Numbered from the stretch's first letter, positions 16,069-54,332 are shown. The stretch is 64,000 bases of DNA from Patescibacteria group bacterium (GCA_038077975.1 JBBUGM010000006.1:4905-68904); one strand, 5' to 3'. The notes: generated by a model not told the origin, from the sequence alone. Numbers and translations are program-made.

Positions 16069-16069
16069 C

Positions 16070-16500: not shown

Positions 16501-16632
16501 GCCGCCGCCGACTACAAAAAAGGCAAAGCGCAGGCCTTGCAATTCTTAGTGGGCAAGGCGATGAGCAAGTTAAAGGGCAGGGGAGACCCGGAGAAGTTGA
16601 GGGAATTACTAAAGAAACAGCTGGGGACATAG
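16501..16632 (+). pseudogene. orphan duplicate of the gatB 3' end (attR-like remnant)
   Basis: About 85% identical to 15601-15732 at an exact 900-nt offset; a 20-nt identical core gccgactacaaaaaaggcaa, then decaying identity, ending at an in-frame tag. Confidence 0.7.
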
Positions 16633-17045: not shown

Positions 17046-17168
17046 AGGTCGAATATTCATGGCTACGGCAACAACCGTAGCCATTTAGCTTATAAACGTT
17101 TGCCTTGCCTTTTGCGCGTCAGAGTGTAGCATCTAATCAGGAGCTTTGATACATTGAGGAGGTTAGCC

Positions 17169-18619: not shown

Positions 18620-18625
18620 TAGTTT

Positions 18626-18658
18626 GTGCGGGCCCTCTTTTCGGGCCCGTTCTTTTTT
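18626..18658 (+). terminator. intrinsic terminator after prcBA
   Basis: gcgggccc-tcttttc-gggcccg followed by ttcttttttg. Confidence 0.55.
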
Positions 18659-18706
18659 GTTAGTATTGTGTTAGATGTTTGAACGCTTTGGTTATGGGAG
18701 GATGTG

Positions 18707-20389
18707 ATGCCGAGAGAAAATCCCGAAAGACAGCCGGAACTTAGCGCCCAAGAACTTTTGAATCGGCTGCGAAACTGCGAAGATGCATATGCCCGATCCG
18801 CTAGCGCGAACGATAAATTGGCCGAGTTGATTTTTAAACTTGCCCCGTTTAGAGAGCCGCCATACAGCTTGGCAGTTTTCGTTTCTCTGTCCGATATAAA
18901 CGACGGCAGGGAAGAAGGACTAAGAAGATCGCTCGCGTCGCTGGGGGTCGATTCACCCACGGACGGTTTTTCGAAGTGCTATCTTTTGCTGAATAACGGC
19001 GCCATGGCGATCGGCACGGTTGAAGATGAATTAGGAAGAGGCCTCAAGTCGGGACAAGTGGTTCTTGTAAGCGGCAACATGGGGGTTGTGGCCGCGGTTC
19101 CGGACGAAGAAATCAGGCATCTTAAAAGTGTTACGGTAGCGACCATCGAGCAAGTTGTGGACGATTTTATCCTGATTGACGACGGCGCCGGATATCGAGG
19201 CGGAGGCGTTGTTCTTTCTCCTCGTCTCCGGGAAGAGTTGGGGCGTAAACCTCTTGAGAACGGCGACAAAGTTCTGCTTTTTGGGAAATGTATTTTGCGC
19301 GTGCTTGAGAGACAGGAAAAGCGTATAGGTACGCTCGAGAAGGTGACGTTTGAGGATATCGGCGGCCTGGAAAAACAGGCGCAGGAAATCCGCGACCTTT
19401 TGGGCCTCGATTTCTCCGAGGAGCTTAAGCTCAAAATGAACAGAGAGTTTCCGCGGGGGGCGGTCCTTTACGGACCTCCCGGAAACGGCAAGACCCTACT
19501 TGCCCAAGTTTTGGGCAATGAGCTCGGATTTTTCATCGAGCTTGTCAGCGGTCCGGAAATAGAGAGTATGTGGGTTGGCGAAGGGCCGAAAATGATGAGA
19601 GCGAAGTTCGGGAGAGCCTATAAGAACAGGCCGTCTCTTCTGGTTTTTGACGAAGCTGATGTTCTTTTCCCGGTCCGCGGCGCCTCCGTTAGTGAGGGAT
19701 ACAAAACAGATTACCTTGCGCAGTTCAACGTTCTTATGCAGGGAGTTGAGAGTACCGCAGGCGTTTTCGTGCTTTTGCTGACGAATCGAGTTGACCGCAT
19801 TGATCCGGCAGCCATTCGAGCTGGGCGCGCGGATAAGAAAATTTTCATACCGCGTCCCGGTATGGACGGAGCCAAAAAAATCTTCTCGATCCATCTTAGG
19901 CGCTATCCTTTTGCCGGCGCGGATGACGATAAAACGAAAAGAAATCTCATGCGCGGACTTGCAGAGAAAGTGATCGAGGCAGTTTTCAGACGCGGGTCGG
20001 ATACACATCTTTTTACGGCTTTTCGCGGAACGGACGAGACAAGGTATTACATCAGAGATTTCGTTTCCGGAGCGCTGTTCAAAAATATAGCGGACGAGAT
20101 TTCTTTGCGCGCGATGAAGCGCCTTAAAGAGGATGGCACGGAAGCAGATTCTCCGCAGTGCGGTATCACAGAGATAGATGCGGACGGCGTTGCTGCCCAG
20201 GCGATCAGTAATGAGATACCGCGCGACGACGATTCGAGAAATCAATGGCTTTTAACGAACGGATATAAACCGGCAGACACATTTAGAAACGGTCCGGCTC
20301 TCGAGGACGAGAAAGAGCTGGCAAATCGCAGAAAAGTTATGATCCGCAGGCATGCAGTGAGGAAAACAAAGAAAAAGAGGCCCTCGTAA
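18707..20389 (+). CDS. ARC/Mpa-like AAA+ ATPase (proteasome-associated)
   Basis: N-terminal coiled coil, Walker A GPPGNGKT, Walker B LLVFDEAD; basic C-terminus lacking the usual GQYL tail. Confidence 0.7.
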   Translation: MPRENPERQPELSAQELLNRLRNCEDAYARSASANDKLAELIFKLAPFREPPYSLAVFVSLSDINDGREEGLRRSLASLGVDSPTDGFSKCYLLLNNGAMAIGTVEDELGRGLKSGQVVLVSGNMGVVAAVPDEEIRHLKSVTVATIEQVVDDFILIDDGAGYRGGGVVLSPRLREELGRKPLENGDKVLLFGKCILRVLERQEKRIGTLEKVTFEDIGGLEKQAQEIRDLLGLDFSEELKLKMNREFPRGAVLYGPPGNGKTLLAQVLGNELGFFIELVSGPEIESMWVGEGPKMMRAKFGRAYKNRPSLLVFDEADVLFPVRGASVSEGYKTDYLAQFNVLMQGVESTAGVFVLLLTNRVDRIDPAAIRAGRADKKIFIPRPGMDGAKKIFSIHLRRYPFAGADDDKTKRNLMRGLAEKVIEAVFRRGSDTHLFTAFRGTDETRYYIRDFVSGALFKNIADEISLRAMKRLKEDGTEADSPQCGITEIDADGVAAQAISNEIPRDDDSRNQWLLTNGYKPADTFRNGPALEDEKELANRRKVMIRRHAVRKTKKKRPS

Positions 20390-20458
20390 TGGGGGCCTCC
20401 TTTTATTTGCGGCAATGCCTTATAATGCAGATAGCATATTGATTCTAAGGAGAATAAG

Positions 20459-22000
20459 ATGGCGCTGATCATGGGTTCGGAAACGGAATTTGGACTGACT
20501 TCGCGCGGCAGAGCTGGCATCCACGATTTTTTATTCGAAATCGACAAACAGCGCGGCCCGGCGTTTACTTCAAGAAAAAGCGGTGAAGTTGCCGAGGCGG
20601 CAAAAAAATTGAATTGGTGGGGCGAGGATCTGTCTTTTGACGAAACAGTTGATAAGCGTGCGGGATTTGCGGATGTCGCTAGGCGCCTTGGCATGAGTGG
20701 AGATTATTTAAGCAACGGAGCTCGTTTTTACAGAGATTGCGGCCACCTGGAGTATTCTACGCCTGAATGCCGTAATCCGTGGGAATTGGTCGCTTACGAA
20801 AAGGCCGGCGAGGAGATCGTGCGTTTATGCGTCGCTCGCGCCGCGGAACGCCTCGGTTCGAAAGCAGATTTACTCAAAAGAAATGCCGATTATCATGACA
20901 GTTCTTACGCGTGTCATGCCAACTATCTTCTAAGCAGAAAGCTGTTCAATCTTCTGGTCCCGAGTTTTGATGTTGAAACCTTGGGAGCATCGGACTTTTT
21001 GAGTCGCGAGCAGGCCATTTGGACCGCGCACAACATCAGTATGCAGATATTTGCTGGCGCAGGGAGGATTGTCCCCGGCATTGCATGGCCGGATTGCTTT
21101 ATTCCTTCGCAGCGGCAGAAATTCATTACCCACTTTGCCGCCCTAGATACAACTCATGCGCGCAGTATCATTAATACCCGCGATAGACCCTATGCCGATC
21201 CGTCTCGGTTTGCGAGATTGCATGTAATTTGCTGCGACAGCAACAGGGCTGATTGGTCGAATATCTTGAAGTACGGCACGTCGTCCCTGGTTTTGGGAGC
21301 GCTTGAGGACTTCGCGGCATTAGAGAACGAAAGTTACGGTTATCTTACGCCGGCAAACGCGGTGCAAAGCTTCAGAAATCTCAAAGATAGAAATAGCCAG
21401 ATTGAAACTTCTGCTGGAATAATTACCGCTCTCGATATGCAGAGAAAAATCCTTGAATTTGCGGCTAATTGGCACCAAAAGCACGGGAAGCCCGGGTATG
21501 AATGGGCGCCGCTCCTTTTTGCCATGTGGAAAGAAATTCTTGATCTACTTGAGAGAGATGACGAAAAGTTGCGTATGCTACTCGATCGATATATCAAACA
21601 GAGGGTTTTTGAAAAAGGGTTTGGCAGTTCAGATCAAAACTCCCGGACGTTAAAGTCGTTAGAGCACAACTATCATCTCGTAGATCACAACTCTCTTTTC
21701 GGCCGATTAGAGAAGGAAGGACACGTTGATGTTGTTGTCGGGAGCGACGACGTAGAAGCGGCTTTTGCTTCTCCGCCGCCCACAAGAGCCAGCCTTCGTT
21801 GCAGATTACTCCGGTTTTTAAAGAAAAGATTCGAAGATGGTCGCGGGGTTGTGTCTTGGCACTCTTTGGGCTTCACCGATGGTCGCAGGAAAGTTTTTAT
21901 TTCACTTCCTGACCCTGCGTCAAGCCGCGCACATGAAATTTCCGAAGAGAAAAGTTCGTTTTCAGAGAGATTATTTTCTCGCAAAAGGATCTGGGGTTAA
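20459..22000 (+). CDS. PafA/Dop-family protein (Pup ligase or depupylase), paralog 1
   Basis: GSETEFG N-terminus and NGARFYRDCGHLEYSTPEC signature of the PafA/Dop carboxylate-amine ligase fold. Confidence 0.75.
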   Translation: MALIMGSETEFGLTSRGRAGIHDFLFEIDKQRGPAFTSRKSGEVAEAAKKLNWWGEDLSFDETVDKRAGFADVARRLGMSGDYLSNGARFYRDCGHLEYSTPECRNPWELVAYEKAGEEIVRLCVARAAERLGSKADLLKRNADYHDSSYACHANYLLSRKLFNLLVPSFDVETLGASDFLSREQAIWTAHNISMQIFAGAGRIVPGIAWPDCFIPSQRQKFITHFAALDTTHARSIINTRDRPYADPSRFARLHVICCDSNRADWSNILKYGTSSLVLGALEDFAALENESYGYLTPANAVQSFRNLKDRNSQIETSAGIITALDMQRKILEFAANWHQKHGKPGYEWAPLLFAMWKEILDLLERDDEKLRMLLDRYIKQRVFEKGFGSSDQNSRTLKSLEHNYHLVDHNSLFGRLEKEGHVDVVVGSDDVEAAFASPPPTRASLRCRLLRFLKKRFEDGRGVVSWHSLGFTDGRRKVFISLPDPASSRAHEISEEKSSFSERLFSRKRIWG

Positions 22001-22012
22001 AGGAGGCGAACG

Positions 22013-23533
22013 ATGGTCAGATATTTTGGCACGGAAAGCGAACACAACGTTTCTTATCGTTCGAAGGAGGGAAAGATCCATAATTCCGCCAACGACGGAC
22101 TTCTGTCGCGCAACCCGCCCACTTTAGCCGATACGGAAATTTTACTGTCGGACATTAGCCCGGGAGAGCTTGGGCGTGACATCTTTTTTAACCCGAGCAA
22201 TATTTGGCTTGCGAACGGAGGCAGGCTATACAAAGACGGAGCTCTTACGGAATATGCCACTCCCGAATGCCAAAGCGCAAAGGAGTTGGTTCTTGCCGAG
22301 ATGGCCGGAGACGAAATTGTGGCGCGCGTAGTGAACAAATTAGCCGATGCCAAAGACGTCTACGCCCTTAAAAGAAGCGCTTCGAAAGAAATGGATTTAA
22401 CGCGCGGAGCCCATGAAAGCTACGCGATTCCGGAGAGTTTTCACAAGGAGCTGATAACGGATATGACGTTGAGCCACCGCATTTTCAAGTTTTTTTCGGC
22501 CAGCCGTCAAACTTTTGCCGGAGCCGGCCACCTTGGTTATCTCGGGAGAGACAAGGTGTCTCATCTTATGTTCTGGGTCAGTCCTAGAATATACTTTATC
22601 GACCTTGAGCTGAATACTGGCACAGTAAGGAACACCGGGCGAGCTTTGGTAAACTCCCGTATTAAACCGCTTGTGGCGGGAAACCTCGAGGGGATGCAGA
22701 GGTTACACTGCATAGTCGGCGACATGAATCGGTCTCCGTGGTCGATTTATCTCAAAATAGGAGTCACGGTTTTGGTCTTGGAGTTTCTTCAACTCGTTAG
22801 TTATGAAGCGTTGAATCGTCTTGGCGGAAAGATGAAGTCGGACGGCACGTTGATTCACCGAGCGAAGGCAGCCACGCTTTTCCTAAACGACAATGCCCTG
22901 AAAGACGACTTTGATTTTTTACTCGATATCCAATACCGCTTAAGCGATGCGGTTTGGGGCATGAGGGAAGAGATTTCCGAAAGACACAATGAATTTGAAG
23001 AGATTTTTTCTTTATGGCGGGAAGCGTTGGATGCCGCGGCCTCTGAAGGCGTTGCGCGCAAGAAATTTGAGAAGCGGCTCGATTGGCTGATCAAAAGGAA
23101 GTTTATTCGCGAACTCGTCGGCGGAGAGATTCCTGCTTTGGACAAAATAGAACGAGGCGATAAATTGCGCAAATTACTTTCTTTCGACTTTGCGTATCAC
23201 CGGGTTAACCACAAAGACCTGTATAAATTTCTGGTTAAGTCGGGCGCCATTGAAGAGAAATATGCGGAAAGCGAAGCTGCGCATTATCTCTCTAGCCCTC
23301 CGGGAGGAAGGGCGAAAAGCCGCGTGTTGATTGCGAGACGAGCGCAGGAGTTAGGCATAGTGAGAAATATCACCGATTTTGACTGGGCAAGAATAGGTTT
23401 TATCCGGGATCTTCTGCCGCAGGCCGATTACGACAGAAGAGTGCCGCCGAGACGAGAAATAGCGTTTGACGACAGAAGCCCGGAAACGTTAAAATTACAC
23501 TTAGAAGATATATACAACTGGATTCGAGGGTGA
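22013..23533 (+). CDS. PafA/Dop-family protein, paralog 2
   Basis: GTESEHN N-terminus and NGGRLYKDGALTEYATPEC; GGAGG RBS. Confidence 0.75.
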   Translation: MVRYFGTESEHNVSYRSKEGKIHNSANDGLLSRNPPTLADTEILLSDISPGELGRDIFFNPSNIWLANGGRLYKDGALTEYATPECQSAKELVLAEMAGDEIVARVVNKLADAKDVYALKRSASKEMDLTRGAHESYAIPESFHKELITDMTLSHRIFKFFSASRQTFAGAGHLGYLGRDKVSHLMFWVSPRIYFIDLELNTGTVRNTGRALVNSRIKPLVAGNLEGMQRLHCIVGDMNRSPWSIYLKIGVTVLVLEFLQLVSYEALNRLGGKMKSDGTLIHRAKAATLFLNDNALKDDFDFLLDIQYRLSDAVWGMREEISERHNEFEEIFSLWREALDAAASEGVARKKFEKRLDWLIKRKFIRELVGGEIPALDKIERGDKLRKLLSFDFAYHRVNHKDLYKFLVKSGAIEEKYAESEAAHYLSSPPGGRAKSRVLIARRAQELGIVRNITDFDWARIGFIRDLLPQADYDRRVPPRREIAFDDRSPETLKLHLEDIYNWIRG

Positions 23534-26420: not shown

Positions 26421-26495
26421 GTCATTGCCCGACTAGATCGGGCAATCCAGTTTCGTATTTACATTTTAGATTCTCGGATCGAGTCCGAGAATGAC
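26421..26495. repeat. two-hairpin MITE/REP-like element, copy 1
   Basis: GTCATT-gcccga-ctagatc-gggcaATCC, a 21-nt spacer, then GATTctcgga-tcgag-tccgagAATGAC; hairpin B supplies the last 11 codons of miaA. Confidence 0.5.
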
Positions 26496-27649
26496 AGAGA
26501 GAATTTTTTCACCAACGACTCGGCCTCCTTCTCGCTTTTTATCCAATTTATCCTTTTGTCTTTTCTGAACCACGTCATCTGCCGCTTGGCGTAGGCCCAG
26601 GTATTTTGTTTGATTTGTTTTGCAACTTCCTGCGGAAGCGCCGATTTATGCTGATTTGGCTGATTTATGCTGATCTCTTTAAGAGGCACCGATTGCTCAA
26701 AAATGTTATTTCCTGAGTGGGTCGAAGGATAACATTTTTGAACGCCGCCCTTCGATAAACTCAGGGAAGAATAGCATCCTGCCGCAAGATAATCGATGAT
26801 CTCGCGATAACCAATCGTGTTTATAAGTACCGACGTCCTGCCGTACTTGTTGAGCAATTCTTGCACTTCTTTTACGAGTCCAGCGCGGATCATTTCGTCC
26901 ACGCGGCTTTCTATTCTCTGCCGCAGTTTTACGGGCGGCAATTTTACTCCAAGTTCAAGCGCGTCAAAAAGCGGTTCGCCTTTTTTCCGCTGGGCAGTAA
27001 AGGGTTTTCCGGTTTGGATGGCAACCTCTAGCGCGCGCACGACACGGCGGGGATTTTTGAGGTCAACTATGTAAGCCGCTTCCGGGTCCAGTTTCAAGAG
27101 TTCTTCGGCAACGGAATCTAATCCTTTCTTCTCTATTCTCTCTTTTATCTCCTTGCGTAGCTTCGGATCCGCCTTGACTTCCGGTATGTCTAAATTCTCA
27201 ACGATCGCTTTTACATAAAGTCCCGTGCCGCCAACGAGTATCGGCAGTTTGCCGCGCCGCAATATGCCGCGGATGGCGCGCAAGGCGTCGCGTTTGTAAT
27301 CTGCGAGTGAGTATTCTTCGTCCGGATTTTTGATGTCGATAAGATGATGTGCTATCTTGCTCTTTGCGATTTGCGCTTTGCCCTTTGCGGTGCCGATATC
27401 CATCCCGCGGTATATTTGCCTTGAATCCGCAGAGACAATCTCCCCATTGAATTTTTTGGCGAGCTTAAGCGCGAGTGCGGATTTGCCGCTTGCCGTGGGG
27501 CCCACGATAACCAGTATTTTTGGCAAGGATTTTGTGGCGCGGCGACTCGATGAAGCCAAAAATGCTATTTCCTGAGCTGGTCGAAGGATGGTATTTTTGG
27601 CGGTACCCTTCGACAAGCTCAATGGATGAAAATTACTCGTGTTTGACAT
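26459..27649 (-). CDS. miaA: tRNA dimethylallyltransferase carrying repeat-derived in-frame insertions
   Basis: P-loop GPTASGKS, DSRQIYRGMDIGTAK, YAKRQMTWFR. About 90 aa longer than typical MiaA because of two in-frame copies of a 69-nt palindromic repeat plus a 15-nt microduplication; N-terminal start uncertain. Confidence 0.75.
   Translation of the reverse strand: MSNTSNFHPLSLSKGTAKNTILRPAQEIAFLASSSRRATKSLPKILVIVGPTASGKSALALKLAKKFNGEIVSADSRQIYRGMDIGTAKGKAQIAKSKIAHHLIDIKNPDEEYSLADYKRDALRAIRGILRRGKLPILVGGTGLYVKAIVENLDIPEVKADPKLRKEIKERIEKKGLDSVAEELLKLDPEAAYIVDLKNPRRVVRALEVAIQTGKPFTAQRKKGEPLFDALELGVKLPPVKLRQRIESRVDEMIRAGLVKEVQELLNKYGRTSVLINTIGYREIIDYLAAGCYSSLSLSKGGVQKCYPSTHSGNNIFEQSVPLKEISINQPNQHKSALPQEVAKQIKQNTWAYAKRQMTWFRKDKRINWIKSEKEAESLVKKFSLSFSDSIRESKM
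26698..26766. repeat. 69-nt palindromic repeat, copy A (inside miaA, in frame)
   Basis: aaaaatgttatttcctgagtgggtcgaagg...cccttcgataaactcaggg with inverted arms; encodes the ...SLSLSKGG... insert. Confidence 0.6.
27558..27625. repeat. 69-nt palindromic repeat, copy B (miaA 5' region / N-terminal extension)
   Basis: aaaaatgctatttcctgagctggtcgaagg...cccttcgacaagctcaatgg, about 80% identical to copy A. Confidence 0.6.
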
Positions 27650-35123: not shown

Positions 35124-37073
35124 ATGGCGGTTGACGAGATAAAAAAGACGGGTCTTCCGCGCGGAATTGGTTGGGGGATTTTCGCGCTGATTTTGGTTTT
35201 CATCGGCGGGCTATTTTTAACTTTCGGCCGGACGAAAGATATTACCGCGGAAAGGGTGGCAGGCAACATCGATGAATTGAAGAGCGGCGTCGAAGACCTG
35301 CGCAACTTTAACACCGAATCGGCTAAAGAGAGATTTTCTCGAATAGGAACGGAGATAGTCGATATTAGGGATTCGGTGGGAATTTTCGGCTCGCTTTTTA
35401 GTGGCACGGGAGAGCTTTTGCTAAATTTTCAAAACGTGACAGCGCAAGGCATCGCCTTGAGTGGCGAGATGGAATTCCTGCGCGCGAACGCGCTCGGTCT
35501 TTTCCTTGAAGACGGAAAGACGCTTCTCGAACATCTTAAAACTGTCCAGGGTGCGCTTAGAAGTGTTGATGAGTCGGCGCGCAAGCTCGCTACGGCGGCG
35601 TCCGGTCTCAATGAGGCCGCTTCGCTCGCCGGAGAATTCTATTTGCCGTTCCAGCTCGATCTCGCGCGGTTCATGGGTTTTCTTGATGCGCTTTTGCCGA
35701 AGCTCGAAGCGGAAGAGATAAATTTTTTGGTCCTTTTCCAAAATCCGTCGGAGATAAGGCCCGCGGGAGGATTTCTCGGGAGCTATGCCGTGGTTTCGGT
35801 GAAGGGGGGCCAGCTCCAAAACGTGGAAGTGCACGACGTAAACGACGTCGACCGTACTTTTGAAGATAAGATCACGCCGCCGCGGCCGCTTCAGGCGGTT
35901 GCGAGGTCATGGCGTCCGTATGACGCAAATTGGTTTTTCGATTTTGCTCTCTCGGCAAAAAAGGTTGCGAAATTTTTCGAGACATCCGGACTGTACCGAG
36001 ACAAGGCCGCCCCTGACGGTGCCGCAGCCCCGTTTGACGGGGTGATGGCAGTTTCTCCTAAGGTTGTCGAAGACATTCTTGCGCTTACCGGCCCCATCGA
36101 ACTACCGGAAAGAAAATTGGTTTTTAATGAAGATAATTTTTTGATGGAAACCCAGCGCCTTGTGCAGGAAGGCCAGGCGACGAACTCGACATATCCCAAA
36201 AAAATATTGGAAGAACTCGCGCCGCTTATATTTGAGCGCGTCAAAACGATGGACGACGCGCAAAAAAATGAATTTTGGAATTTGGTTTCTGATTGGATCA
36301 GCCGCAAGGACATTATGGTTTATTTTGTGGAGCCGAAACTCCAGAGTTTCGCGCGGTACTACGGGGCAACGGGTGAGACATACGAATTATCGCAGGATTG
36401 GAATGGCAATTACTTAGCGCTCGTCGATGCGAACATTGGCGGCGGCAAATCGGATCTTTTCATTAAGCAAAATATCGTCTTGGAGAGCCAGATCAATGCC
36501 GACGGCACTATTTCCAACCATCTGGTCGTTGATCGCATCCACGAGGGTAATAGATCGAAGTACTGGTGGTACAAGGAAACGAACCAAAATTACCTTCAGG
36601 TTTTCGTGCCAAGTTCCGCGCGGCTTACGAACTTCAAAGGTGGCGTGGACAAAACAATTACGCCGAAAGTGAATTACGTAAAAGAGGGATATGACGTGGA
36701 CAGCGATGTTTCCGCTATCGAAAGTTCGGAGGAAGCGGTTTTCAATTTCCCTGCGGTTCGTATGCACAAAGAACTGGGCAAGTCGGTTTTCTCCACCTGG
36801 TCGGCAACAAAAGCGGGCGCGAGAACACAGCTTGTTTTCGATTACGTGACGCGGCTCGCTCTCGCTCCCGAGGACGGAGTGGAATATCACTTTGTTTTCG
36901 AAAAACAAGCCGGGACTGCTCGCAATTATAAATTCCAGATCAGCGCCCCGGCCGGATTTCGTTTCGCGGAGAGCGGCTTGCCGGTATTTGCGTATGAAGC
37001 AGTGAGTAACGCTACGTCTTCTAGTGCGCTCCCGGGGCGGTTGATCGTAGATTTGACATTGGAGAGGATCTGA
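35124..37073 (+). CDS. DUF4012-like membrane-anchored extracytoplasmic protein
   Basis: N-terminal TM, 649 aa, motif NPSEIRPAGGFLGSYAVV recalled from the DUF4012 family. Confidence 0.5.
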   Translation: MAVDEIKKTGLPRGIGWGIFALILVFIGGLFLTFGRTKDITAERVAGNIDELKSGVEDLRNFNTESAKERFSRIGTEIVDIRDSVGIFGSLFSGTGELLLNFQNVTAQGIALSGEMEFLRANALGLFLEDGKTLLEHLKTVQGALRSVDESARKLATAASGLNEAASLAGEFYLPFQLDLARFMGFLDALLPKLEAEEINFLVLFQNPSEIRPAGGFLGSYAVVSVKGGQLQNVEVHDVNDVDRTFEDKITPPRPLQAVARSWRPYDANWFFDFALSAKKVAKFFETSGLYRDKAAPDGAAAPFDGVMAVSPKVVEDILALTGPIELPERKLVFNEDNFLMETQRLVQEGQATNSTYPKKILEELAPLIFERVKTMDDAQKNEFWNLVSDWISRKDIMVYFVEPKLQSFARYYGATGETYELSQDWNGNYLALVDANIGGGKSDLFIKQNIVLESQINADGTISNHLVVDRIHEGNRSKYWWYKETNQNYLQVFVPSSARLTNFKGGVDKTITPKVNYVKEGYDVDSDVSAIESSEEAVFNFPAVRMHKELGKSVFSTWSATKAGARTQLVFDYVTRLALAPEDGVEYHFVFEKQAGTARNYKFQISAPAGFRFAESGLPVFAYEAVSNATSSSALPGRLIVDLTLERI

Positions 37074-37129
37074 TATATAATGCTTCCAGCATCGGCGGAT
37101 TCTAATCTGCCGAAAACAAGGAGGATAGC

Positions 37130-37408
37130 GTGAAGAAAGCACTTGTGTCACTTTTCGTTCTGATGGCTGTGGCCTCCACACTCAACTTCATGGCAAATCA
37201 AAAAGTTACCGATAAAGTCACTGATTACGATTCTCTTGCGGTTGTGCATCAAACACGCGACGGATGGTTTGTAACCCATCCTTCATTCGCGCGACGCCTG
37301 CCCGATGAAATGAAGGATCTGTTCCCAATCCCACGCCGCATCTCAATTCATTACGAATTCCTAAAGAAAGAAAAAGTAGTAATTACGACAGAAACGATAG
37401 AGTACTAA
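37130..37408 (+). CDS. small secreted protein
   Basis: GGAGG RBS, signal-peptide-like N-terminus MKKALVSLFVLMAVAS. Confidence 0.45.
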   Translation: MKKALVSLFVLMAVASTLNFMANQKVTDKVTDYDSLAVVHQTRDGWFVTHPSFARRLPDEMKDLFPIPRRISIHYEFLKKEKVVITTETIEY

Positions 37409-37531
37409 GTTCTTTTCCCCTAGCCCCGTGCGATTTCCGCGCGGGGTTTTCTTTTACGGACCAGAATTTTTACCTTGCGAGCCCAAAATTTTCCGATTGC
37501 AATCCAGCAAAAAATTTGGTACAATTAAAGT

Positions 37532-37777
37532 ATGAAAACAAACATTTTAAGGCGGCTTCCAAAAAACCTTTATGGATATTTTTGGGAAATTGATCGGAAG
37601 TCTCTCGACGCTAAAAAGTATGGCGCGTACATCGTTAAACGCCTTTTGGAGCATGGCCGGCCGGAGGCGATCCGTTGGGCGTGGAAACATATCCCAAGGC
37701 GGGTATGGCGTAAGGCGCTCCAGTCGCGCGAGATTTCGCAAAGAACCCGCTCGTTTTGGGAATCGCTCGTGCGCTGA
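37532..37777 (+). CDS. small basic protein, putative AbiEi-like antitoxin partner
   Basis: 81-aa ORF ending 9 nt before the AbiEii-like gene. Confidence 0.35.
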   Translation: MKTNILRRLPKNLYGYFWEIDRKSLDAKKYGAYIVKRLLEHGRPEAIRWAWKHIPRRVWRKALQSREISQRTRSFWESLVR

Positions 37778-37786
37778 CACACTTTT

Positions 37787-38425
37787 ATGGTTGTCCTCGA
37801 CAATCTGCCAAAAAATACGCGGGGCGCCCTCGAAAAACTTGCCGGCGCCGCTTTTATAAAAAAATTTTATCTTGCCGGCGGCACGGCCGCGACGCTTTTT
37901 TTTAGACACCGGGAATCCAAAGACCTCGATTTCTTTTCCGAGGACCATTTTCGGACACCAACACTTATTAGACACCTCGCGAAAATCGGCTCATTCGTTA
38001 CTACTAAAACCGCAGAAGATACGCTAGAAGGCAGATTTGAAAAAGTAAAAATTAGCTTTTTCACGCTTCCATACAAATTGCTCGAAAAATCGCTCAAGTA
38101 CAAAAATATGCGCATTGCTTCCCTGGTTGATATTGCGACGATGAAAATTCTTGCCATATCTGATCGCGGTACGCGGCGCGATTTTATAGATCTTTACTGT
38201 CTGGCTACGCGGGTAAAGCCGCTCGACAAACTACTTCTCGATTTTGAGAGAAAATTCGGGAAATACGACTACAATTTACACCACATCATCGCAAGCTTAA
38301 CTTATTTCAAGGACGCAGAGGAGGAACCGATACCGCATCTTTATATCGATCTTGAGTGGAAGAATGTTAAGAGGTTTTTTTTACACGAAAAACCGCTTCT
38401 TGCAAAGAAGTTTTTGATTGGATAG
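37787..38425 (+). CDS. AbiEii/DUF1814-like nucleotidyltransferase toxin
   Basis: YLAGGTAATLFFRHRESKDLDFF nucleotidyltransferase motif. Confidence 0.7.
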   Translation: MVVLDNLPKNTRGALEKLAGAAFIKKFYLAGGTAATLFFRHRESKDLDFFSEDHFRTPTLIRHLAKIGSFVTTKTAEDTLEGRFEKVKISFFTLPYKLLEKSLKYKNMRIASLVDIATMKILAISDRGTRRDFIDLYCLATRVKPLDKLLLDFERKFGKYDYNLHHIIASLTYFKDAEEEPIPHLYIDLEWKNVKRFFLHEKPLLAKKFLIG

Positions 38426-38486
38426 TTCCCTTGGCGACAAAGCCTCTTCTGCCTTCTCCGACTCGACAGAGGCGAGGCGAGCGAGA

Positions 38487-38559
38487 TCGGCTTGCCGGTA
38501 TTTGCGTATGAATCGCACGAATCTTCATCATCGACGAATCAGATGCCGGGGCGGTTGAT
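38487..38559 (+). pseudogene. orphan duplicate of the 3' end of the DUF4012-like gene (attR-like remnant)
   Basis: 25-nt identical core cggcttgccggtatttgcgtatgaa (36974-36998 vs 38487-38511), a diverged middle, then shared ccggggcggttgat. Confidence 0.6.
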
Positions 38560-38677
38560 ATCATATTTTGCGCGACGCAGATTTAACGGCGGATGAATTG
38601 ATGAATTTGTTATAGACTAATTTGATTTTTATCGAGCATTAAGATATACTGCGGGCAGTACTTAGAGGAGGATTCAC

Positions 38678-38947
38678 TTGAAGACAGCTGATAAAGTTGA
38701 GCTTCTGGGAGCAGCATCTGGTGTCATCACAACCGCATCTTTCGTGCCGCAAGTAGTGAAAATCTGGTGGGCTTATCCCGCGCCGGCAAACGACATTTCT
38801 CTCTTGGCGTTCGCCGCGCTCACTTTCGGCGTCGCCGGCTGGATCGCCTATGGTGTGTTCAGGAGATCGCCTTCTTTGATAATCGCTAACTCGCTCACAT
38901 TTGTATTCGCCGGTTCGATCCTTGTCTACAAGCTCATTTGCGGCTAA
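38678..38947 (+). CDS. SemiSWEET/PQ-loop-like 3-TM transporter
   Basis: 89 aa, three TM helices, PQ motif FVPQVVKI in TM1; GAGGAGG RBS with TTG start. Confidence 0.5.
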   Translation: MKTADKVELLGAASGVITTASFVPQVVKIWWAYPAPANDISLLAFAALTFGVAGWIAYGVFRRSPSLIIANSLTFVFAGSILVYKLICG

Positions 38948-39050
38948 TCGATTCCTCGCCCCGCGCGATTTTCGCGCGGGGCTTTGTATTGTCTTATATC
39001 GTGCGATCGCAGCGTATAAGAATTTTCTGCGCGGGGCGGAGGATACTCGA

Positions 39051-40802
39051 TTATTTTTTGAGTATCTCTCTGAACGTTTCCGGCGGGATGTCAACGCGCG
39101 CCATTGATTGCAGTTTTTCCTTCCCCCTCGCCTGTTTTTTCCAAAGCTTCATTTTGCGCGTTCTGTCGCCGCCGGTTTTTCCGAAATTGCCCAAAAGTTT
39201 CTTCATGGCCGGAATCGTTTCGCGGGCAATGATGCGCCCGTGCGCTTGCGCTTGTATCGCCTGCGTAAATTGCTGTTTGGGCAAAAGCTCCTTGAGGCGT
39301 TCCACGGTTTGCCGCGCCTCGCGCTCAATGTCTTTTTCCGCAACTATGCGCGTTAGAGCCGGCACAACGTCGCCCACAACAAGAATTTCGAGTTTCGCCA
39401 CCTCCGCCTCTTCTTCGCCTGCAAGCTCGTAGCTGAATGATGCGTAACCTTGGGAAGCGGACTTCAACTTGTCATCAAAATCGCGGATAAGTTCCGCAAG
39501 CGGCATTTTTGCTTCGACAATGACGCTGTCGCCCATGGTTTGCACTTCGAGTATTTCAATATCAAAAACGTTCTTCAGCATCGCCACGGAATTCAAATAT
39601 TCCTTTGGCGCCAGAATTTCGAGCTTGATCATTGGCTGCCATGCTTTGTCCGGCTTGTCGGGAAAATCCTGCGGCTGTTTGATAACTTTTTTCGTGCCAC
39701 TCTCTTCGATTGTGTAGGCAATGGTGGGGAAACTGGTAAGGAATTCCAAGCTGAATTCTCTTTCGAGGCGGCTTGAGACGATCTCGAAATGAAGCTGTCC
39801 TAAAAATCCTACCTTTAGTCCACGCCCAAGGGCCTCGTTCGCTTCGGGCTCGATCGAAAGCGCCGGATCCGAAAGGCGCAAACGATCCAGGCCTTTCTTC
39901 AAATCCTCGAATTTGGTTTTGCCATCCGGATAATAAGAAATGAAGACGACCGGTGCCACCTCGCGATAGCCCGGAAGCGGAGTCGCTTCGCGGCCTGCTG
40001 GTCTTATTGTGTCACCAATACGGACAAGCGCCGGCTCTTTGAGCCCTGTTGCAACATAGCCGATCTCGCCGGAACGAACCGCTTCGGAACGCTTGAATTC
40101 GGGAGTAAAATATCCGACTTCTTTGGGATGAAACCTGGTTCCGCCGGAAGCAAATTGCATTTCACTTCCGCCGAAGTCGCCCGAAAAGACGCGCACGAAT
40201 GCGATGATACCCTTGTGATCATCGTAGAGTGAGTCGAAAATCAATGCCTTCTCGCCATCCGTAGCACGCGGTGCAGGGAATTTTTCGATGGTTGCATTGA
40301 GCAATTCCTCAACTCCGACGCCCGTCTTTGCCGAAATACGAAAAATCTCTTCGGCGGGAACTCCGAGAAGTTCGGCGGTTGCCTTCACTGTTTTTTCGAT
40401 GTTCGGTAAGTTGAGATCAATTTTGTTCACGGCGCCGATTATTTTTAGACCCGCCCTTCTCGCGGCTCGCAAATTGGAAAGCGTCTGCGCCTGAATTCCT
40501 TTCGTGGCATCAACAAGCAGGATCGCGCCCTCGACCGCCGCAAGAGCGCGTGAAACCTCGTAGGAGAAATCGCTGTGTCCCGGCGTGTCGATCAGATTCA
40601 GAATGTGACCCTTGTACGACATCCTTACCGGCGCCATCTTGATTGTGATTCCCCGTTCGCGCTCGAGCTCCATCTTATCCAAATACTGCGGCTTCATCTG
40701 CCGCTTATCCACCGTTCCTGTGATTTCCAAAAGCCGATCGGCGAGAGTCGATTTACCGGAATCGATGTGGGCAATAATACAGAAGTTGCAAATATTATTC
40801 AT
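39051..40802 (-). CDS. lepA: elongation factor 4
   Basis: G domain AHIDSGKSTLADRLL, DTPGHSDF, and LepA-specific C-terminal domain. Confidence 0.9.
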   Translation of the reverse strand: MNNICNFCIIAHIDSGKSTLADRLLEITGTVDKRQMKPQYLDKMELERERGITIKMAPVRMSYKGHILNLIDTPGHSDFSYEVSRALAAVEGAILLVDATKGIQAQTLSNLRAARRAGLKIIGAVNKIDLNLPNIEKTVKATAELLGVPAEEIFRISAKTGVGVEELLNATIEKFPAPRATDGEKALIFDSLYDDHKGIIAFVRVFSGDFGGSEMQFASGGTRFHPKEVGYFTPEFKRSEAVRSGEIGYVATGLKEPALVRIGDTIRPAGREATPLPGYREVAPVVFISYYPDGKTKFEDLKKGLDRLRLSDPALSIEPEANEALGRGLKVGFLGQLHFEIVSSRLEREFSLEFLTSFPTIAYTIEESGTKKVIKQPQDFPDKPDKAWQPMIKLEILAPKEYLNSVAMLKNVFDIEILEVQTMGDSVIVEAKMPLAELIRDFDDKLKSASQGYASFSYELAGEEEAEVAKLEILVVGDVVPALTRIVAEKDIEREARQTVERLKELLPKQQFTQAIQAQAHGRIIARETIPAMKKLLGNFGKTGGDRTRKMKLWKKQARGKEKLQSMARVDIPPETFREILKK

Positions 40803-40992
40803 AAATCAAAGCATAACCGCTTGTGCAGAAAAGAGAAAGGCGCAACGAGAAGCCCACCCGAAACGTTCCGGGAGATTTTGAAAAAGTAAGTATTATTATA
40901 TCGTACGATCGGAACATTTAATAAAAATGCCCCGAGCGAATTAGTGTAAATTTGTAGTTCCGATTGTTTTTCAGTATCCTTAAATTGCAATT

Positions 40993-42016: not shown

Positions 42017-43096
42017 TTAGTCCCAAATCGCAGGATGGTCGTGTTTTCTTCTGCCGAATCTTGTCATCCATGCATTGTGTTCGAAGTTTATGAACTCACG
42101 GCCGCTGAACGAATATTCCGCTTCCACCATATCAATGACTTCAGGCATCTGGGGGAGAAAGAGATCGTCGTCGGGATTCAAGGAGCAGAGAACATGGCTT
42201 TGCAGAAGATCGCGTATCTTGAGGTAGCCCGTATTGGGGATCAGGCCAGAGGAATAATTCGATCCCGGACAAAGTTCAATGCCGATCCTATTTTCTACGA
42301 CATATTTGACGAGGTCATTATCATAAGCGAGAGGAATGGCGTGTCCGACGCGGTCGGCGCCAAGATTAAAGATGGCGGTACGGATGTTGCGCAAAAGAGA
42401 TGGCTTGTCGCGCTCGGCCAGTTGGCGGATGCGGCTTGCAAGCCCCGCTCGTTCCGATGAGTTGCTTCCTGCAGGATAATCCGTTGCCACCCATTCCCCG
42501 GCATGAATCGAAATTTTAAGTCCAAGTTTTTTAGCTAACCGGAACGCCACCATGTGTTTTTCCGGAGGATGACCGGCTTCGTCGCAGACAAGTCCTACGC
42601 CGACAACGTAATTCCGATCGCACTCAGATGCGAGACGGATCAACTCCTCGCTTCTTGCTAGATCAACTTCTCTGCCGATCGTAAAAAGCAGATTGACCTC
42701 AATTTGCGGAAATTCTGATTCGGCCCTTTTGATCCCCTCAATGAGCGCACCGATCACCTCTTTTTCTTTCATACCTCCGAACATATGATACTGCGGCGCA
42801 ATTGTTGCTTCGCAATAGAGGAATCCTTGTTCTGCGCGCGTTCTCGTATAAGCTTCTCCGGCAAGGGCCAAAGTTTCGCGCGATTGCATCACGCCTGTCG
42901 TGTTGGAAAATCTTTCGACAATGTCGAGCTGGACATTGTTGAAAAGCGTTTTCACCTGTTCACACTGCTCCGCAAAAGTTCCCTTGAAAGGATATGGTTT
43001 TTTGCTGATCCGGAAGAGTTCCGGGAGAACAGTCATAAGCGGATACGAGCCATCAAGGTGATCATGTAGGAGAACTCTGGGAATGGAATGTTTCAT
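42017..43096 (-). CDS. add: adenosine deaminase-family metallohydrolase
   Basis: LHDHLDGS and SIHAGEW motifs of the adenosine/AMP deaminase fold. Confidence 0.8.
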   Translation of the reverse strand: MKHSIPRVLLHDHLDGSYPLMTVLPELFRISKKPYPFKGTFAEQCEQVKTLFNNVQLDIVERFSNTTGVMQSRETLALAGEAYTRTRAEQGFLYCEATIAPQYHMFGGMKEKEVIGALIEGIKRAESEFPQIEVNLLFTIGREVDLARSEELIRLASECDRNYVVGVGLVCDEAGHPPEKHMVAFRLAKKLGLKISIHAGEWVATDYPAGSNSSERAGLASRIRQLAERDKPSLLRNIRTAIFNLGADRVGHAIPLAYDNDLVKYVVENRIGIELCPGSNYSSGLIPNTGYLKIRDLLQSHVLCSLNPDDDLFLPQMPEVIDMVEAEYSFSGREFINFEHNAWMTRFGRRKHDHPAIWD

Positions 43097-43221: not shown

Positions 43222-44778
43222 ATGAATCCTGGGTCAATTATCCACATGCTCAATTCTCAATCAAAAGTTAATGACAGGAAGATGCAAGTCGGAGAACTTG
43301 GGACTCCGGCCTTGTCAAAAGAAGAACGCCTCGCTATCGAGAAGTTTTTTTTGGCGAAAGGGCTTCCTCTCGACCGCGCGGTGACTTTTGCCGACGTTAC
43401 GCTTCCCGAGCGCTATTCCGACATCCGCACGCGCTCGGAGGTTTATGATTTTAAGACGGAACTTGTTCCGGGCTTTTCGCTTGCCATTCCGGTTGTGAGT
43501 GCGAACATGGAATCGGTAACGGGTCTTGAGTTATCCGTGGCGCTTGAGTGCGAAGGGGGATTGGCTTTCCCGCCGCAGACCCTGCCGGTCGGCGAGCGCG
43601 TGGAGCTTATCGAACGCATTGCGCGGGCAGATTCCGCTTTTATTGAAAATCCGCTTACGGCAAGGCCGGAGTGGACGCTTAACAAGGCAAAAGAATTGAT
43701 GGCGGAGTATGGCGTGAAGAGTTTGATAGTTACGGACGAGAAGAAGAAAGTAGTCGGCATCTTTACAAAAAGAGATTGGTTCTACGAGAACGACGACAAG
43801 ACATTGGTGGGCGATCTGATGACCAAAAAGGTAATAACGGCGGAGCGCGGCGTTAATTTCGAAAAAGCAGGCGAGATCTTGCGCAAAAATAAAATTGAAA
43901 AACTCCCGCTTGTGGGGAAGCAAGGAGGCCTCGCGGGGCTTATCACCGCTAACGGCCTTTTCTATAAATATCGGCATCCGCGGGCGACGCGTGACGATAT
44001 GGGAAGGTTCGTCCGTACGGGCTCGATCGGCGTCGGCAAATCTTTTAGCGATACGCACCTCAAAGAAGTCGAATCGCAAGTTAAGGCAGGCATATCATTG
44101 CTCTTAGTTGACACTGCAAGGGCGTTTTCGGTGAACACCGAAGAAGCTGTGAAGAGAATAAAAAAAGAATTTCCCGCGCTTCCGCTCGTTGTTGGCAATG
44201 TTTCTACCGCCGAAGGGGCAAAATTTTTATTCGAGACGGGTGCGGATATCGTGAAAGTCGGCCAGGGTCCCGGTTTTGCCTGCCGCACGCGCGCGATCGG
44301 AGTCGGCGTGCCGCAACTCTCCGCCGTTGCGGAATGCGCGGTTATTGCCTCGTGCTACGGTAAAACCGTCATTGCCGACGGAGGAATGAAAAGTCCGGGT
44401 GACGCGGCGAAGGCCTTAATCGCCGGAGCGCGGGCCGTGATGCTGGGCAATATGCTCGTGCGCGCGCAAGAATCCGCCGCGCCGATGTTCGTTGACGAAG
44501 ACGGCAGGCCGGTAAAAAATTATGTCGGTTCTGCGTCTTTCGCCGCGCAGATGGCGCGTCTCGAACGCGGCGATCTCTCGCATCTCCGCCGCCCGGAAGG
44601 CGTAACGAAAGTTGTTCCGGTCACAGGCACGGTGGAAGAGATTGTGAATGACCTAATGCGCGGCTTGAGTTCTACGATGGCTTACTTGGGAGTGCGCAAT
44701 CTCAAAGAACTTCGTGAGCACGGGAGATTTATTTCGCAAACTTCTGCAGGGTATGTGGAGGGCGTGAAGAAAGGATGA
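43222..44778 (+). CDS. IMP dehydrogenase/GMP reductase-family protein with CBS pair
   Basis: TIM-barrel motif VGQGPGFACRTR with catalytic Cys in place; CBS-like segments; atypical N-terminus. Confidence 0.65.
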   Translation: MNPGSIIHMLNSQSKVNDRKMQVGELGTPALSKEERLAIEKFFLAKGLPLDRAVTFADVTLPERYSDIRTRSEVYDFKTELVPGFSLAIPVVSANMESVTGLELSVALECEGGLAFPPQTLPVGERVELIERIARADSAFIENPLTARPEWTLNKAKELMAEYGVKSLIVTDEKKKVVGIFTKRDWFYENDDKTLVGDLMTKKVITAERGVNFEKAGEILRKNKIEKLPLVGKQGGLAGLITANGLFYKYRHPRATRDDMGRFVRTGSIGVGKSFSDTHLKEVESQVKAGISLLLVDTARAFSVNTEEAVKRIKKEFPALPLVVGNVSTAEGAKFLFETGADIVKVGQGPGFACRTRAIGVGVPQLSAVAECAVIASCYGKTVIADGGMKSPGDAAKALIAGARAVMLGNMLVRAQESAAPMFVDEDGRPVKNYVGSASFAAQMARLERGDLSHLRRPEGVTKVVPVTGTVEEIVNDLMRGLSSTMAYLGVRNLKELREHGRFISQTSAGYVEGVKKG

Positions 44779-44979
44779 CTTGTCATTGCGAGGCCGAAGC
44801 CGCCAGGCGAAGGCCGTGGCAATCCATAAATGCTAGAATGAAACACATGAGAGAAACTATTTCAACCAAAAAATCCGCCCAAAATATTCAAGACGAAATT
44901 TTCAGCAAGATGTCGCCTGGAAAAAAAATAAAATCAGCCGCAGAGCTTGCGGCGCTGTGCTTAAAACTTAACCGCCTCA

Positions 44980-45552
44980 ATGGAGCTAACCAGTCAGGAA
45001 AAAATTCTGATTGATGTAGCAAGAACGCTTGAAAAGCTACACCTCCCGTATTTTGTTACAGGTGGTTTTGCGGTTTCTCTCTGGGGTCGCCCTCGAGCCA
45101 CTTTTGACGTGGACATCGTGATTCAGCTTATGAACTCGGATATCAATCCACTTGCTAAGGCGCTAAAAGAAGTTTCTAAATTGGGTTACATAGACGAAGA
45201 CATGATGAAAGACGCTGTCAAATGGCACCGAGAATTTAATTTCATTGATCCGGAAAGCGGCATGAAGGTGGATTTTATGGTTAGTCCCAATGACGAGTTC
45301 TCCCGTTCAAGATTTAAACGGAAGAGCGCGAAAGAAATCGGTGGACAGCAAGTATATTTTACATCACCGGAGGACTTGATATTGAGCAAACTCTTATGGC
45401 AAAAGGAATCCGGCTCCGAATTGCAGCTTAGAGATGTGGAATCGATCATCAAAATTTCTGGTCGTAAGCTCGACAGGTCTTATTTGGAAGAATGGGCAAG
45501 AAAATTGGGCGTTTGGGATGTTTTGGACGGCATTTTAGAAGACGCGGCATAG
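44980..45552 (+). CDS. predicted nucleotidyltransferase-fold protein
   Basis: YFVTGGFAVSLWGRPRATFDVDIVI NTase-like core; preceded by a small overlapping ORF (about 44838-45014). Confidence 0.45.
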   Translation: MELTSQEKILIDVARTLEKLHLPYFVTGGFAVSLWGRPRATFDVDIVIQLMNSDINPLAKALKEVSKLGYIDEDMMKDAVKWHREFNFIDPESGMKVDFMVSPNDEFSRSRFKRKSAKEIGGQQVYFTSPEDLILSKLLWQKESGSELQLRDVESIIKISGRKLDRSYLEEWARKLGVWDVLDGILEDAA

Positions 45553-49815: not shown

Positions 49816-49916
49816 TGTCATTCTCGGACTTGATCCGAGAATCCAGACAATGCCCTTCGGGACACACGTCTTCGACTGCGGCCATGGACTAGATTCCCGC
49901 TTTCGCGGGAATGACA
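49816..49916. repeat. two-hairpin MITE/REP-like element, copy 3 (longest)
   Basis: tGTCATTctcgga-cttgatc-cgagaATCC, 42-nt spacer, GATTcccgc-tttc-gcgggAATGACa; terminal inverted repeats GTCATT / AATGAC. Confidence 0.55.
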
Positions 49917-54163: not shown

Positions 54164-54197
54164 GCGGGATTAGTACAGTGGCAGTACGGTTGCTTCC
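54164..54197 (+). pseudogene. tRNA-Gly 5'-half pseudo-copy
   Basis: 29 of 34 nt identical to the 5' half of the tRNA at 54259; no T-arm or acceptor 3' strand follows. Confidence 0.4.
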
Positions 54198-54258: not shown

Positions 54259-54332
54259 GCGAGGTTAGTACAGTGGTAGTACGCCTGCTTCCCAAGCAGG
54301 AGACGCGAGTTCGATTCTCGTACCTCGCTCCA
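54259..54332 (+). tRNA. tRNA-Gly (anticodon CCC), CCA encoded
   Basis: Hand-folded cloverleaf: acceptor gcgaggt/acctcgc, D-arm gtac-agtggta-gtac, anticodon arm cctgc-ttCCCaa-gcagg, T-arm gcgag-ttcgatt-ctcgt, then tCCA. Confidence 0.85.

Follow-up and report, generated by a model that had tools for sequence, protein, structure and literature searches.

Integrative elements that enter the 3' ends of protein-coding genes supply the interrupted gene with a replacement end, as phage 21 and e14 do at icd, and att-flanked cis-mobilisable elements (CIMEs) lacking an integrase are also known. Another kind of 3'-end exchange is the C-terminal displacement of rhs and other polymorphic-toxin genes, which leaves orphan (dissociated) tips behind (Jackson et al. 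2009, PMC2935791): different tips follow an identical core, the intervening genes are carried along, and homologous recombination through a circular intermediate has been proposed (PMC2935791). Furthermore, homology-facilitated illegitimate recombination (HFIR) has been invoked for the displacement of effector-immunity modules of the type VI secretion system in Vibrio cholerae (PMC5361080, citing de Vries & Wackernagel 2002 and Prudhomme et al. 2002). As regards the genes that may be gained in this way, the AbiE system (AbiEi/AbiEii), a type IV toxin-antitoxin (TA) and abortive infection system, and the MenAT system are outlined in passages of PMC3985639, PMC7450476, PMC10435456 and PMC11375011. 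The subject of this work is a stretch of 64,000 nt, called the window throughout and used for all coordinates, from a Patescibacteria group bacterium (GCA_038077975.1 JBBUGM010000006.1:4905-68904), a groundwater, Paceibacteria-like metagenome-assembled genome, in which the 3' region of a DUF4012 gene is repeated on the far side of a segment carrying a putative nucleotidyltransferase (NTase) TA pair. The repeat is attributed here, with moderate confidence, to the homology-anchored, additive integration of DNA from relatives, the TA pair being its cargo.

The displaced DUF4012 tail

The DUF4012 gene (35124-37073, + strand; 649 aa; Pfam PF13196, E=4e-19) is intact, with its 3' region duplicated. 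In all of its 209 homologues in Patescibacteria the C-terminus has the same form, ...LPV[FY]xYE-variable linker-PGRL..LTLEKI* (the asterisk standing for the stop). The live copy of the repeated segment, copy A (36969-37045, +), consists of a 30-nt core encoding ESGLPVFAYE, a 33-nt Ser-rich linker encoding AVSNATSSSAL and a 14-nt tail encoding PGRLI; copy B (38483-38596, +), a displaced orphan DUF4012 tail, has the core, another 33-nt linker (SHESSSSTNQM) and the 14-nt tail. The core blocks (36969-36998 and 38483-38512) are identical at 29/30 positions and include the exact 25-mer CGGCTTGCCGGTATTTGCGTATGAA at 36974-36998 and 38488-38512, while the 14-nt block CCGGGGCGGTTGAT lies at 37032-37045 and 38546-38559. 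The spacing is 1514 nt for both pairs of blocks, and the copies are therefore in register, with no indel between them.

Within the window the 25-mer occurs exactly twice with up to 3 mismatches allowed (chance expectation 0.00), and the 14-nt block exactly twice with up to 1 mismatch (chance expectation 0.03). The two 33-nt linkers, equal in length, share about 30% identity by hand count, which is the chance level. The original prediction had described an identical 25-nt core, a diverged middle and a conserved tail, and this description is borne out block by block; the similarity also holds in alignment, where copies A and B score 27.5 against a shuffle maximum of 13.5. The claim that the final 70 nt or so of the gene recur was right as to the repeat and wrong as to its being the final part, since the repeated segment ends 28 nt before the end of the stop codon at 37073; moreover, the core of copy B had been placed one nucleotide too early, at 38487, the exact 25-mer beginning at 38488.

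Read in the DUF4012 frame, copy B gives E-I-G-L-P-V-F-A-Y-E-S-H-E-S-S-S-S-T-N-Q-M-P-G-R-L-I, and a comparison of the DUF4012 tail with it reaches E=3.4e-7 in tblastn. The linker of copy A is of the type found in the two closest relatives (P0002 and P0004); that of copy B resembles a distant homologue, P0020 (ATSSTNRM; ...ATSSTNRMPGRLI), and its 3' half is identical at 24/26 nt to the DUF4012 gene of the corresponding distant lineage (L106), whose core region differs from copy B despite the linker match. Because it is in frame, has a linker of equal length and carries a linker type found in other DUF4012 proteins, copy B is judged from its sequence to be a real, yet mosaic, DUF4012 tail and no chance repeat.

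Beyond the 14-nt tail copy B is divergent: the last 28 nt of the gene are absent and an in-frame stop is found at 38594-38596. The sequence leaves DUF4012 after GGTTGAT, and the part that follows, together with a terminator hairpin further on (T2), aligns with the DUF4012-lepA spacer of the closest relative, L011 (3/500 and 0/500 shuffles, respectively). The missing 28 nt could have been lost by a small deletion between TGAT microhomologies. On the other side, a 57-nt spacer (38426-38482, +) separates the NTase stop from copy B, its right edge being the junction where DUF4012 homology begins; structure in this spacer is not significant (z=0.24), and neither RNA families nor structure were found in the spacer, in copy B or in the leader of the SemiSWEET-like gene that follows.

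The end of the live gene also holds a sigma-70 consensus, TTGACA-17-TATAAT (37053-37081, +; 12/12 matches), which overlaps the last DUF4012 codons and the stop and is likely, from its agreement with the consensus, to be the promoter of the downstream gene. The site sits in the codons for D-L-T and the stop, and the conserved DLTLEKI* tail may have a second role as promoter for the gene downstream, which in most relatives is lepA, often 3-60 nt away. The promoter-bearing part of the tail is kept in a 27-nt DUF4012 relic of another lineage (L012, described below) and lost from copy B of the window.

The status of the segment between the two copies can be judged from gene order in relatives. Alignment-based contig scans provided 160 related loci (a contig scan with a single protein as query yielded none), with the order alanine racemase, FtsQ-like gene, DUF4012, 0-2 small genes, lepA (+), divIC, a 191-aa gene and IMPDH. 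Where the locus extends to lepA downstream of DUF4012, lepA follows on the same strand in 97/97 cases, with gaps of -3 to 2203 nt, and an AbiEii or DUF6922 gene, such as the window carries, was found in this gap in 0/97; in the closest relative the spacer is only 88 nt long. Since none of these 97 loci holds the cassette, the segment between copies A and B is an insertion relative to the ancestral order, as had been proposed. The small genes that fill the DUF4012-lepA slot in different lineages show no homology to each other, and because its occupants are unrelated the slot is a hotspot for lineage-specific additions.

The search for an uninterrupted locus gave two answers: related loci without the cassette exist, as just described, and no empty site or insert-free strain variant was found among the contigs that encode precisely this DUF4012 or NTase protein. 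Every one of these contigs comes from a single groundwater population (Hainich wells); they are 100% identical over the region covered, derive from several separate samples and two assembly pipelines, and both copies lie within at least 5 of them. The repeat is unlikely to be an artefact of assembly, because separate samples and pipelines give base-identical contigs.

Orphan tails of other conserved genes

The original prediction had pointed to the same footprint at gatB, and this is indeed what is found. The live 3' end of gatB (15601-15732, +; gene at 14230-15732) is copied downstream as an orphan end (16501-16632, +; tblastn E=6.6e-19), in frame and with its stop at the homologous position. 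The repeat proper (15601-15698 versus 16501-16598) covers 98 nt at 90% identity, with a 38-nt identical run, and between the copies lies a type VII-like TA pair of MNT and HEPN genes (15745-16480, +). The first gene of the pair (15745-16068) matches NTP_transf_2/Polbeta in Pfam (E about 2e-10), its NCBIfam MntA-like match being weak and below cut-off, and the second, probably starting at the ATG at 16070 and ending at 16480, matches HEPN (E=1e-26); the two genes are overlapping or adjacent. In the first 32 codons of the gatB relic there are 10 nucleotide differences and only 2 amino-acid changes (P=0.0003), and the relic reaches about 50 nt upstream of the longest identical run, with synonymous differences. 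Some GatB homologues (P0268 and P0294; 646-650 aa) include a PF13366 domain (GxxExxY/PDDEXK_3), a sign of insertions in or at gatB in other lineages.

A third relic belongs to lepA, which in the window (39051-40802, -) is inverted when compared with each of the 97 related loci. The ancestral orientation is kept by an orphan lepA 3' end (40836-40889, +), whose last 12 codons (PPETFREILKK*) show 8 nucleotide differences from the live gene, all synonymous, a degree of synonymy reached by 0/20000 random placements. This relic lies where the ancestral lepA end would be expected, just upstream of divIC, and the similarity runs on into the downstream hairpin region (40836-40945); in addition, the motif ttatatcgtRcgatcg is found near both ends of the inverted lepA (38993-39010 and 40896-40912).

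Similar relics exist in relatives. In the second-closest one (L012) the last 27 nt of DUF4012 are repeated (25/27) after a cargo gene for a 170-aa secreted protein and a hairpin; counted over the 27 nt ending at the stop codon this relic has 4 differences, none of them protein-changing (P=0.00075). The same locus has the last 111 nt of lepA repeated in frame 138 nt downstream, with no gene between and with 21 differences, 1 of them non-synonymous. The two cases occupy 6722-7416 and 10019-10378 of that locus, and a diversity-generating retroelement (DGR; bAvd, a reverse transcriptase (RT) and a variable repeat/template repeat (VR/TR) pair) lies beside alanine racemase at 121-2687. In a further locus (L020) a 32-nt identical relic of the tail of a periplasmic-binding-protein gene (3471-3503 and 4641-4672) follows an inserted paralog. 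This relic stands immediately upstream of a DUF6922/AbiEii pair (4768-5645) inside an ABC-transporter operon, and a 23S_rRNA_IVP-family gene splits two permease genes there. Finally, a short relic of the rpiB tail (...SGEKRHKRR*, 2837-2868 of L186) follows a HEPN/MNT pair, weak with a score of 18 against a shuffle maximum of 17. The surrounding region (739-5642) is rich in TA genes (Polbeta/HepT, rpiB, HEPN/NTP_transf_2, a ParE pair, DUF6922/AbiEii), with four TA modules in 5 kb; such modules are common accessory genes in these genomes, and frequent cargo of the process that forms the scars.

These cases were placed in context by a scan of 2068 open reading frame (ORF) tails with reversed sequences as control. 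The control never reached 18, the relic pairs score 22-73, and the real matches are relics, VR/TR pairs of DGRs and tandem paralogs. Among inverted tails, all loci included, only one DGR, hairpins and spurious ORFs were found. One further candidate (L089) was set aside as a relic, as it flanks a probably spurious ORF, and was counted only as a direct repeat around an insert. There remain six clear independent pairs, plus the weak rpiB pair, in about 1.7 Mb of related sequence, and an identical run of 25-38 nt was present in each of the three pairs measured. From their almost purely synonymous differences it follows that the gatB and lepA relics came from functional alleles of relatives and that purifying selection acted on them up to their displacement; they are neither decayed duplicates made in place nor att sites. 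The same origin holds for the displaced lepA and DUF4012 tails of L012. The footprint thus seen at conserved genes appears to be a general recombination scar in these genomes, independent of the cargo.

A third NTase-fold pair had been announced as one more member of the series. The NTase module exists (44775-45552, +; a 79-aa ORF and a DUF6036-like NTase of 190 aa) and is an insertion relative to L015, but it has no flanking duplication, its score being 9.5 against a shuffle mean of 9.2.

Origin of the repeat

According to the explanation favoured here, a donor segment from a related Patescibacteria lineage, consisting of its own DUF4012 3' part, a 92-aa gene, a terminator and the DUF6922/AbiEii pair, would have recombined with the resident gene. 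The recombination would be anchored in the conserved block encoding GLPVFAYE, with the crossover within the identical run of 25-30 nt; identical runs of 25-38 nt are the kind of stretch where a homologous crossover would resolve. At the far junction there would be no matching homologous exchange, this point being either an illegitimate join or the place where a circularised fragment closed, and the resident tail would therefore be displaced and not replaced. The older tail, shunted 1.5 kb downstream, would have remained silent and decaying, with its last 28 nt lost, and the TA pair would be a passive cargo of the event. Two routes could give the same product: a single crossover with a circularised fragment, or a one-sided homologous exchange with illegitimate joining of linear DNA. 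The route itself, the direction of transfer, dependence on RecA and a role for natural transformation are matters that we infer. The signature of purifying selection in the gatB and lepA tails points to homology-driven exchange between related lineages rather than to a site-specific element.

Several observations weigh against this explanation. Copies A and B have identical core and tail blocks around a saturated linker, and simple divergence between donor and resident alleles predicts otherwise; the linker pattern requires either fine-scale mosaicism, which the match with L106 supports, or later gene conversion. Signals of residency conflict, as the linker of copy A is like that of the closest relatives, and the downstream flank of copy B and T2 are closer to L011. 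Neither a donor-type nor a recipient-type configuration was found in any public assembly, and the event itself is unobserved because all population contigs are identical. Moreover, an identical core of 25-30 nt around an insert resembles a site-specific att pair just as well.

This last point leads to the alternative that survives best, although it is unlikely: a remnant or trans-mobilised site-specific integrative cassette, the 25-30-nt core being att, the integrase lost or encoded elsewhere and a replacement 3' end supplied. A 29/30 core followed by a replacement tail that is diverged and yet similar at the protein level would suit it, as would the layout common to the gatB TA cassette and the rpiB HEPN/MNT pair of L186; in addition, many close AbiEii homologues sit on contigs of 1-2 kb, as expected for repeated or strain-variable DNA. 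Against it, no integrase, transposase or tyrosine/serine recombinase was found among the main ORFs of the 64-kb window, a search that did not extend to the rest of the genome, and the exact 25-nt core has 0 matches in the JGI metagenome contigs and IMG/VR. The gatB relic is homologous for about 50 nt past its longest identical run, so that the crossover would lie inside a longer homology, as in homologous exchange. Further, a gene and a terminator separate the TA pair from copy A, the same footprint occurs with non-TA cargo or with none, and relatives of the cassette sit at five other, unrelated loci without flanking duplication (L017, L019 and L020 by alignment, L186 and L187 by repeat scan). 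A locus bearing on the same question (L185) has only two genes in common with the window cassette. By inspection, finally, no core is common to the gatB, DUF4012, lepA, rpiB, L012 and L020 repeats.

Much of this evidence bears equally on the broader proposal of the original prediction, a family of integrase-less NTase-TA cassettes targeting gene 3' termini. The word integrase-less agrees with the main ORFs of the window; the family does not find support, given the lack of a common core, the relatives free of repeats and the cargo that is non-TA or absent. Each of the three NTase modules is of a different family (NTP_transf_2/HEPN, DUF6922/AbiEii and DUF6036), and no flanking core shared by them is seen by inspection. 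It is quite improbable that the two TA cassettes of the window, and the rpiB example of L186, form an integrase-less class inserted at conserved-gene 3' ends through a dedicated pathway of the host or a recombinase whose gene lies elsewhere, in which case the identical runs of 25-38 nt would serve as recognition or crossover site. Better supported than this recombinase version is that in Patescibacteria part of a conserved-gene tail may accompany accessory cassettes and act as a movable homology arm; if that were true, TA modules would gain an integrase-free mobility between lineages, and in-frame orphan tails would record the events.

Very unlikely is the reading of copy B as a silent cassette for the segmental gene conversion, in the manner of pilE/pilS, of the Ser-rich linker of DUF4012, a surface-exposed protein. 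An identical block, a variable block of equal length and in frame, and another identical block fit this reading exactly, and the linker is hypervariable in the family, with one type common to distant lineages at the nucleotide level. Nevertheless, copy B is a single copy, lacks the last 28 nt of the gene and looks decayed; there is no sign of switching, the contigs of several samples being 100% identical; the same layout is found in the gatB and lepA relics, for which a role in variation is not plausible; and among the other 150 DUF4012 loci only L012 has a relic, which covers just the invariant last 27 nt.

Even less credit can be given to tandem duplication or slippage in place followed by cargo insertion, or to an assembly chimera of two strains. 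The copies are direct, in register and close to each other, and terminators T1 and T2 are duplicated too; however, neutral decay cannot yield a saturated linker between two perfectly identical blocks, nor can duplication in place produce the near-purely synonymous differences of the gatB and lepA relics, and the linker of copy B matches a foreign allele. As for a chimera, separate samples and pipelines agree base for base. Finally, that copies A and B are the template and variable repeats of a DGR at the 3' end of its target gene, a notion suggested by VR/TR pairs being common in these genomes (the same scan found them in L012, L175, L111, L170 and L073), was rejected as having almost no probability, since mismatches are seen at all four bases and not at the adenines of one copy alone, and no RT or Avd occurs among the ORFs scanned with Pfam or those listed for 23.8-48.4 kb.

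The cargo, its surroundings and known systems

The integrated segment holds what had been foreseen between the copies: a small secreted-protein gene, a small basic ORF and an AbiEii/DUF1814 NTase. The first gene (37130-37408, +; 92 aa) has a signal-peptide-like segment at its N-terminus and no family match, Pfam included, and no homology was found to the genes filling the same slot in relatives. It is followed by a terminator hairpin, T1 (37419-37455, +), 84% identical to T2 (38954-38990); within the window this hairpin type occurs only at these two sites, and by eye the cargo gene of L012 is followed by a T1-like hairpin as well. Ahead of the TA pair there is a promoter-like site, TTGCAA-17-TACAAT with a TG (37497-37525, +; a consensus match only). 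The pair itself comprises a DUF6922 gene (37532-37777, +; PF21956, E=4.8e-9), encoding a basic protein of 81 aa that is the putative antitoxin or partner, and, after a gap of 9 nt in a bicistronic arrangement, the gene of a 212-aa NTase of the AbiEii/DUF1814/MenT fold, the putative toxin (37787-38425, +; PF08843, E=4e-16). The GC content of the cargo region is 0.41-0.46, versus about 0.5.

The PF08843 match exceeds the gathering score, the AbiEii models of PADLOC match weakly, and a DUF6922 gene directly upstream of an AbiEii NTase is also found in L019, L020-L022 and L186-L188. In an alignment of 30 sequences the NTase keeps all family-invariant residues, including G31, G32, D46, D48, K120, R127, D132 and D135. 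Its AlphaFold2 (AF2) model has a predicted local distance difference test (pLDDT) value of 95, with JHP933, MenT4 and MenT1 as the best PDB folds; a sequence-profile search of the family against PDB sequences gave no match, and only the fold search succeeded. In the 81-aa protein no AbiEi or helix-turn-helix (HTH) family was found in Pfam, NCBIfam or PADLOC. Its segment DAKKYGAYIVKRLLEHGRPEA (residues 25-45) can be matched to one Pumilio/PUF repeat in several solved structures (best E=6e-7), a hint that the partner of a toxin of the tRNA-modifying type may hold a helical repeat that binds RNA. That the segment carries an NTase TA pair, as had been suggested, is plausible from the Pfam, PADLOC and fold matches: the pair is credible as an AbiE/MenAT-like module with a non-canonical small partner, and most likely a MenT/AbiEii-fold NTase toxin would be restrained by the small DUF6922 protein.

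Downstream of copy B the slot holds another lineage-specific occupant, a SemiSWEET-like gene (38678-38947, +; 89 aa; NCBIfam SemiSWEET_2, E=9e-21, a match short of the curated cut-off), for which a promoter scan gives a promoter-like site of its own at 38622-38650. T2 (38954-38990, +), which follows it, is the counterpart of the intergenic DUF4012-lepA terminator of L011. The SemiSWEET-like gene has apparently been inserted into the ancestral DUF4012-lepA spacer, and a single L011 sequence, CTCGCTTCGCGCGACGC, aligns on both sides of it (38566-38580 and 38954-38970). Further along, an adenosine-deaminase gene (42017-43096, -) between the 191-aa gene and IMPDH is not there in L012 and L015, and is another lineage-specific insertion.

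Other features of the window lie apart from this region. Between gatB and lon there is a Pup-proteasome-like cluster (17154-23533) with a proteasome subunit, an AAA ATPase and two Pup-ligase-family genes, which seems unusual for Patescibacteria; a relative whose GatB is 75% identical (L183) has gatB, an SLFN_AlbA_2 gene and lon, with no such cluster. A single ORF of 2269 aa (2620-9429) is an rpoB-rpoC fusion, in which the complete set of RpoB (Rpb2) domains precedes that of RpoC (Rpb1). A hairpin-like direct repeat of 43 nt (86%; 26698-26740 and 27557-27599) lies within or near miaA, and a 28-nt inverted pair, 96% complementary, joins the miaA 3' end (26469-26496) and a site downstream of a PCMT gene (49816-49843); both may be small repeat elements. 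Finally, tRNA-Gly(CCC) (54259-54332) has a 34-nt copy (85%) of its 5' half 95 nt upstream (54164-54197), which ARAGORN does not call as a tRNA and which may be a tRNA fragment relic.

If the integration proposed for the DUF4012 locus is the true one, the repeat is a dated footprint of the gain of accessory or defence genes, without integrases or transposases, in ultra-small uncultivated Patescibacteria. Because six clear pairs and a weak one were found in the related sequence, orphan gene tails could serve as a record of acquisition, by which such gains might be counted and dated and hotspots of recombination located, among them the slots DUF4012-lepA and gatB-lon. In annotation, copy B is best marked, like the gatB and lepA fragments, as a pseudogene relic, and neither as a gene nor as a mobile-element repeat. 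The locus reveals no new kind of mobile element and no new defence mechanism: it is an AbiE/MenAT-like module with a DUF6922 partner together with a scar of the C-terminal-displacement/HFIR type, both of known kinds.

With elements of the phage 21/e14 type the locus shares a direct repeat of a gene 3' end flanking an insert, a live copy in frame and a displaced copy that is a pseudogene; unlike them, it has no integrase in the window and no recurrent att core, its divergence is of the coding type, and the footprint is also found without cargo. Compared with AbiE and MenAT as they are outlined in the passages cited at the outset, the pair is likewise bicistronic, with a DUF1814-family NTase in second place, the G-G-[ST]...D-x-D motif kept and a fold nearest to JHP933, MenT4 and MenT1; relative to the same outlines, its partner is an 81-aa DUF6922 protein and no AbiEi with two domains and a winged HTH, and the putative NTase toxin, a short protein of 212 aa, diverges too far for a profile match to solved structures.

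As in HFIR (PMC5361080), there is a conserved upstream anchor, non-homologous cargo has been added, the old 3' end and the downstream genes are shifted back, and no integrase is needed; the operation of HFIR in Patescibacteria, and their natural transformation, are assumptions here, and the illegitimate junction of HFIR is at this locus indistinguishable from a circle-closure junction. Unlike the rhs genes, DUF4012, gatB and lepA encode no toxins; the displaced tips, of only 12-45 codons, represent different alleles of one conserved tail and no alternative toxin domains; a TA pair or some other small gene takes the place of a cognate immunity gene as cargo; and there is one orphan and no string of them. 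Like rhs, on the other hand, the locus presents an intact gene and then, downstream, a silent fragment that opens with the identical core and continues with a different tip, and, as in that system (PMC2935791), the intervening genes travel with the incoming tip and core fragments are of varying length.

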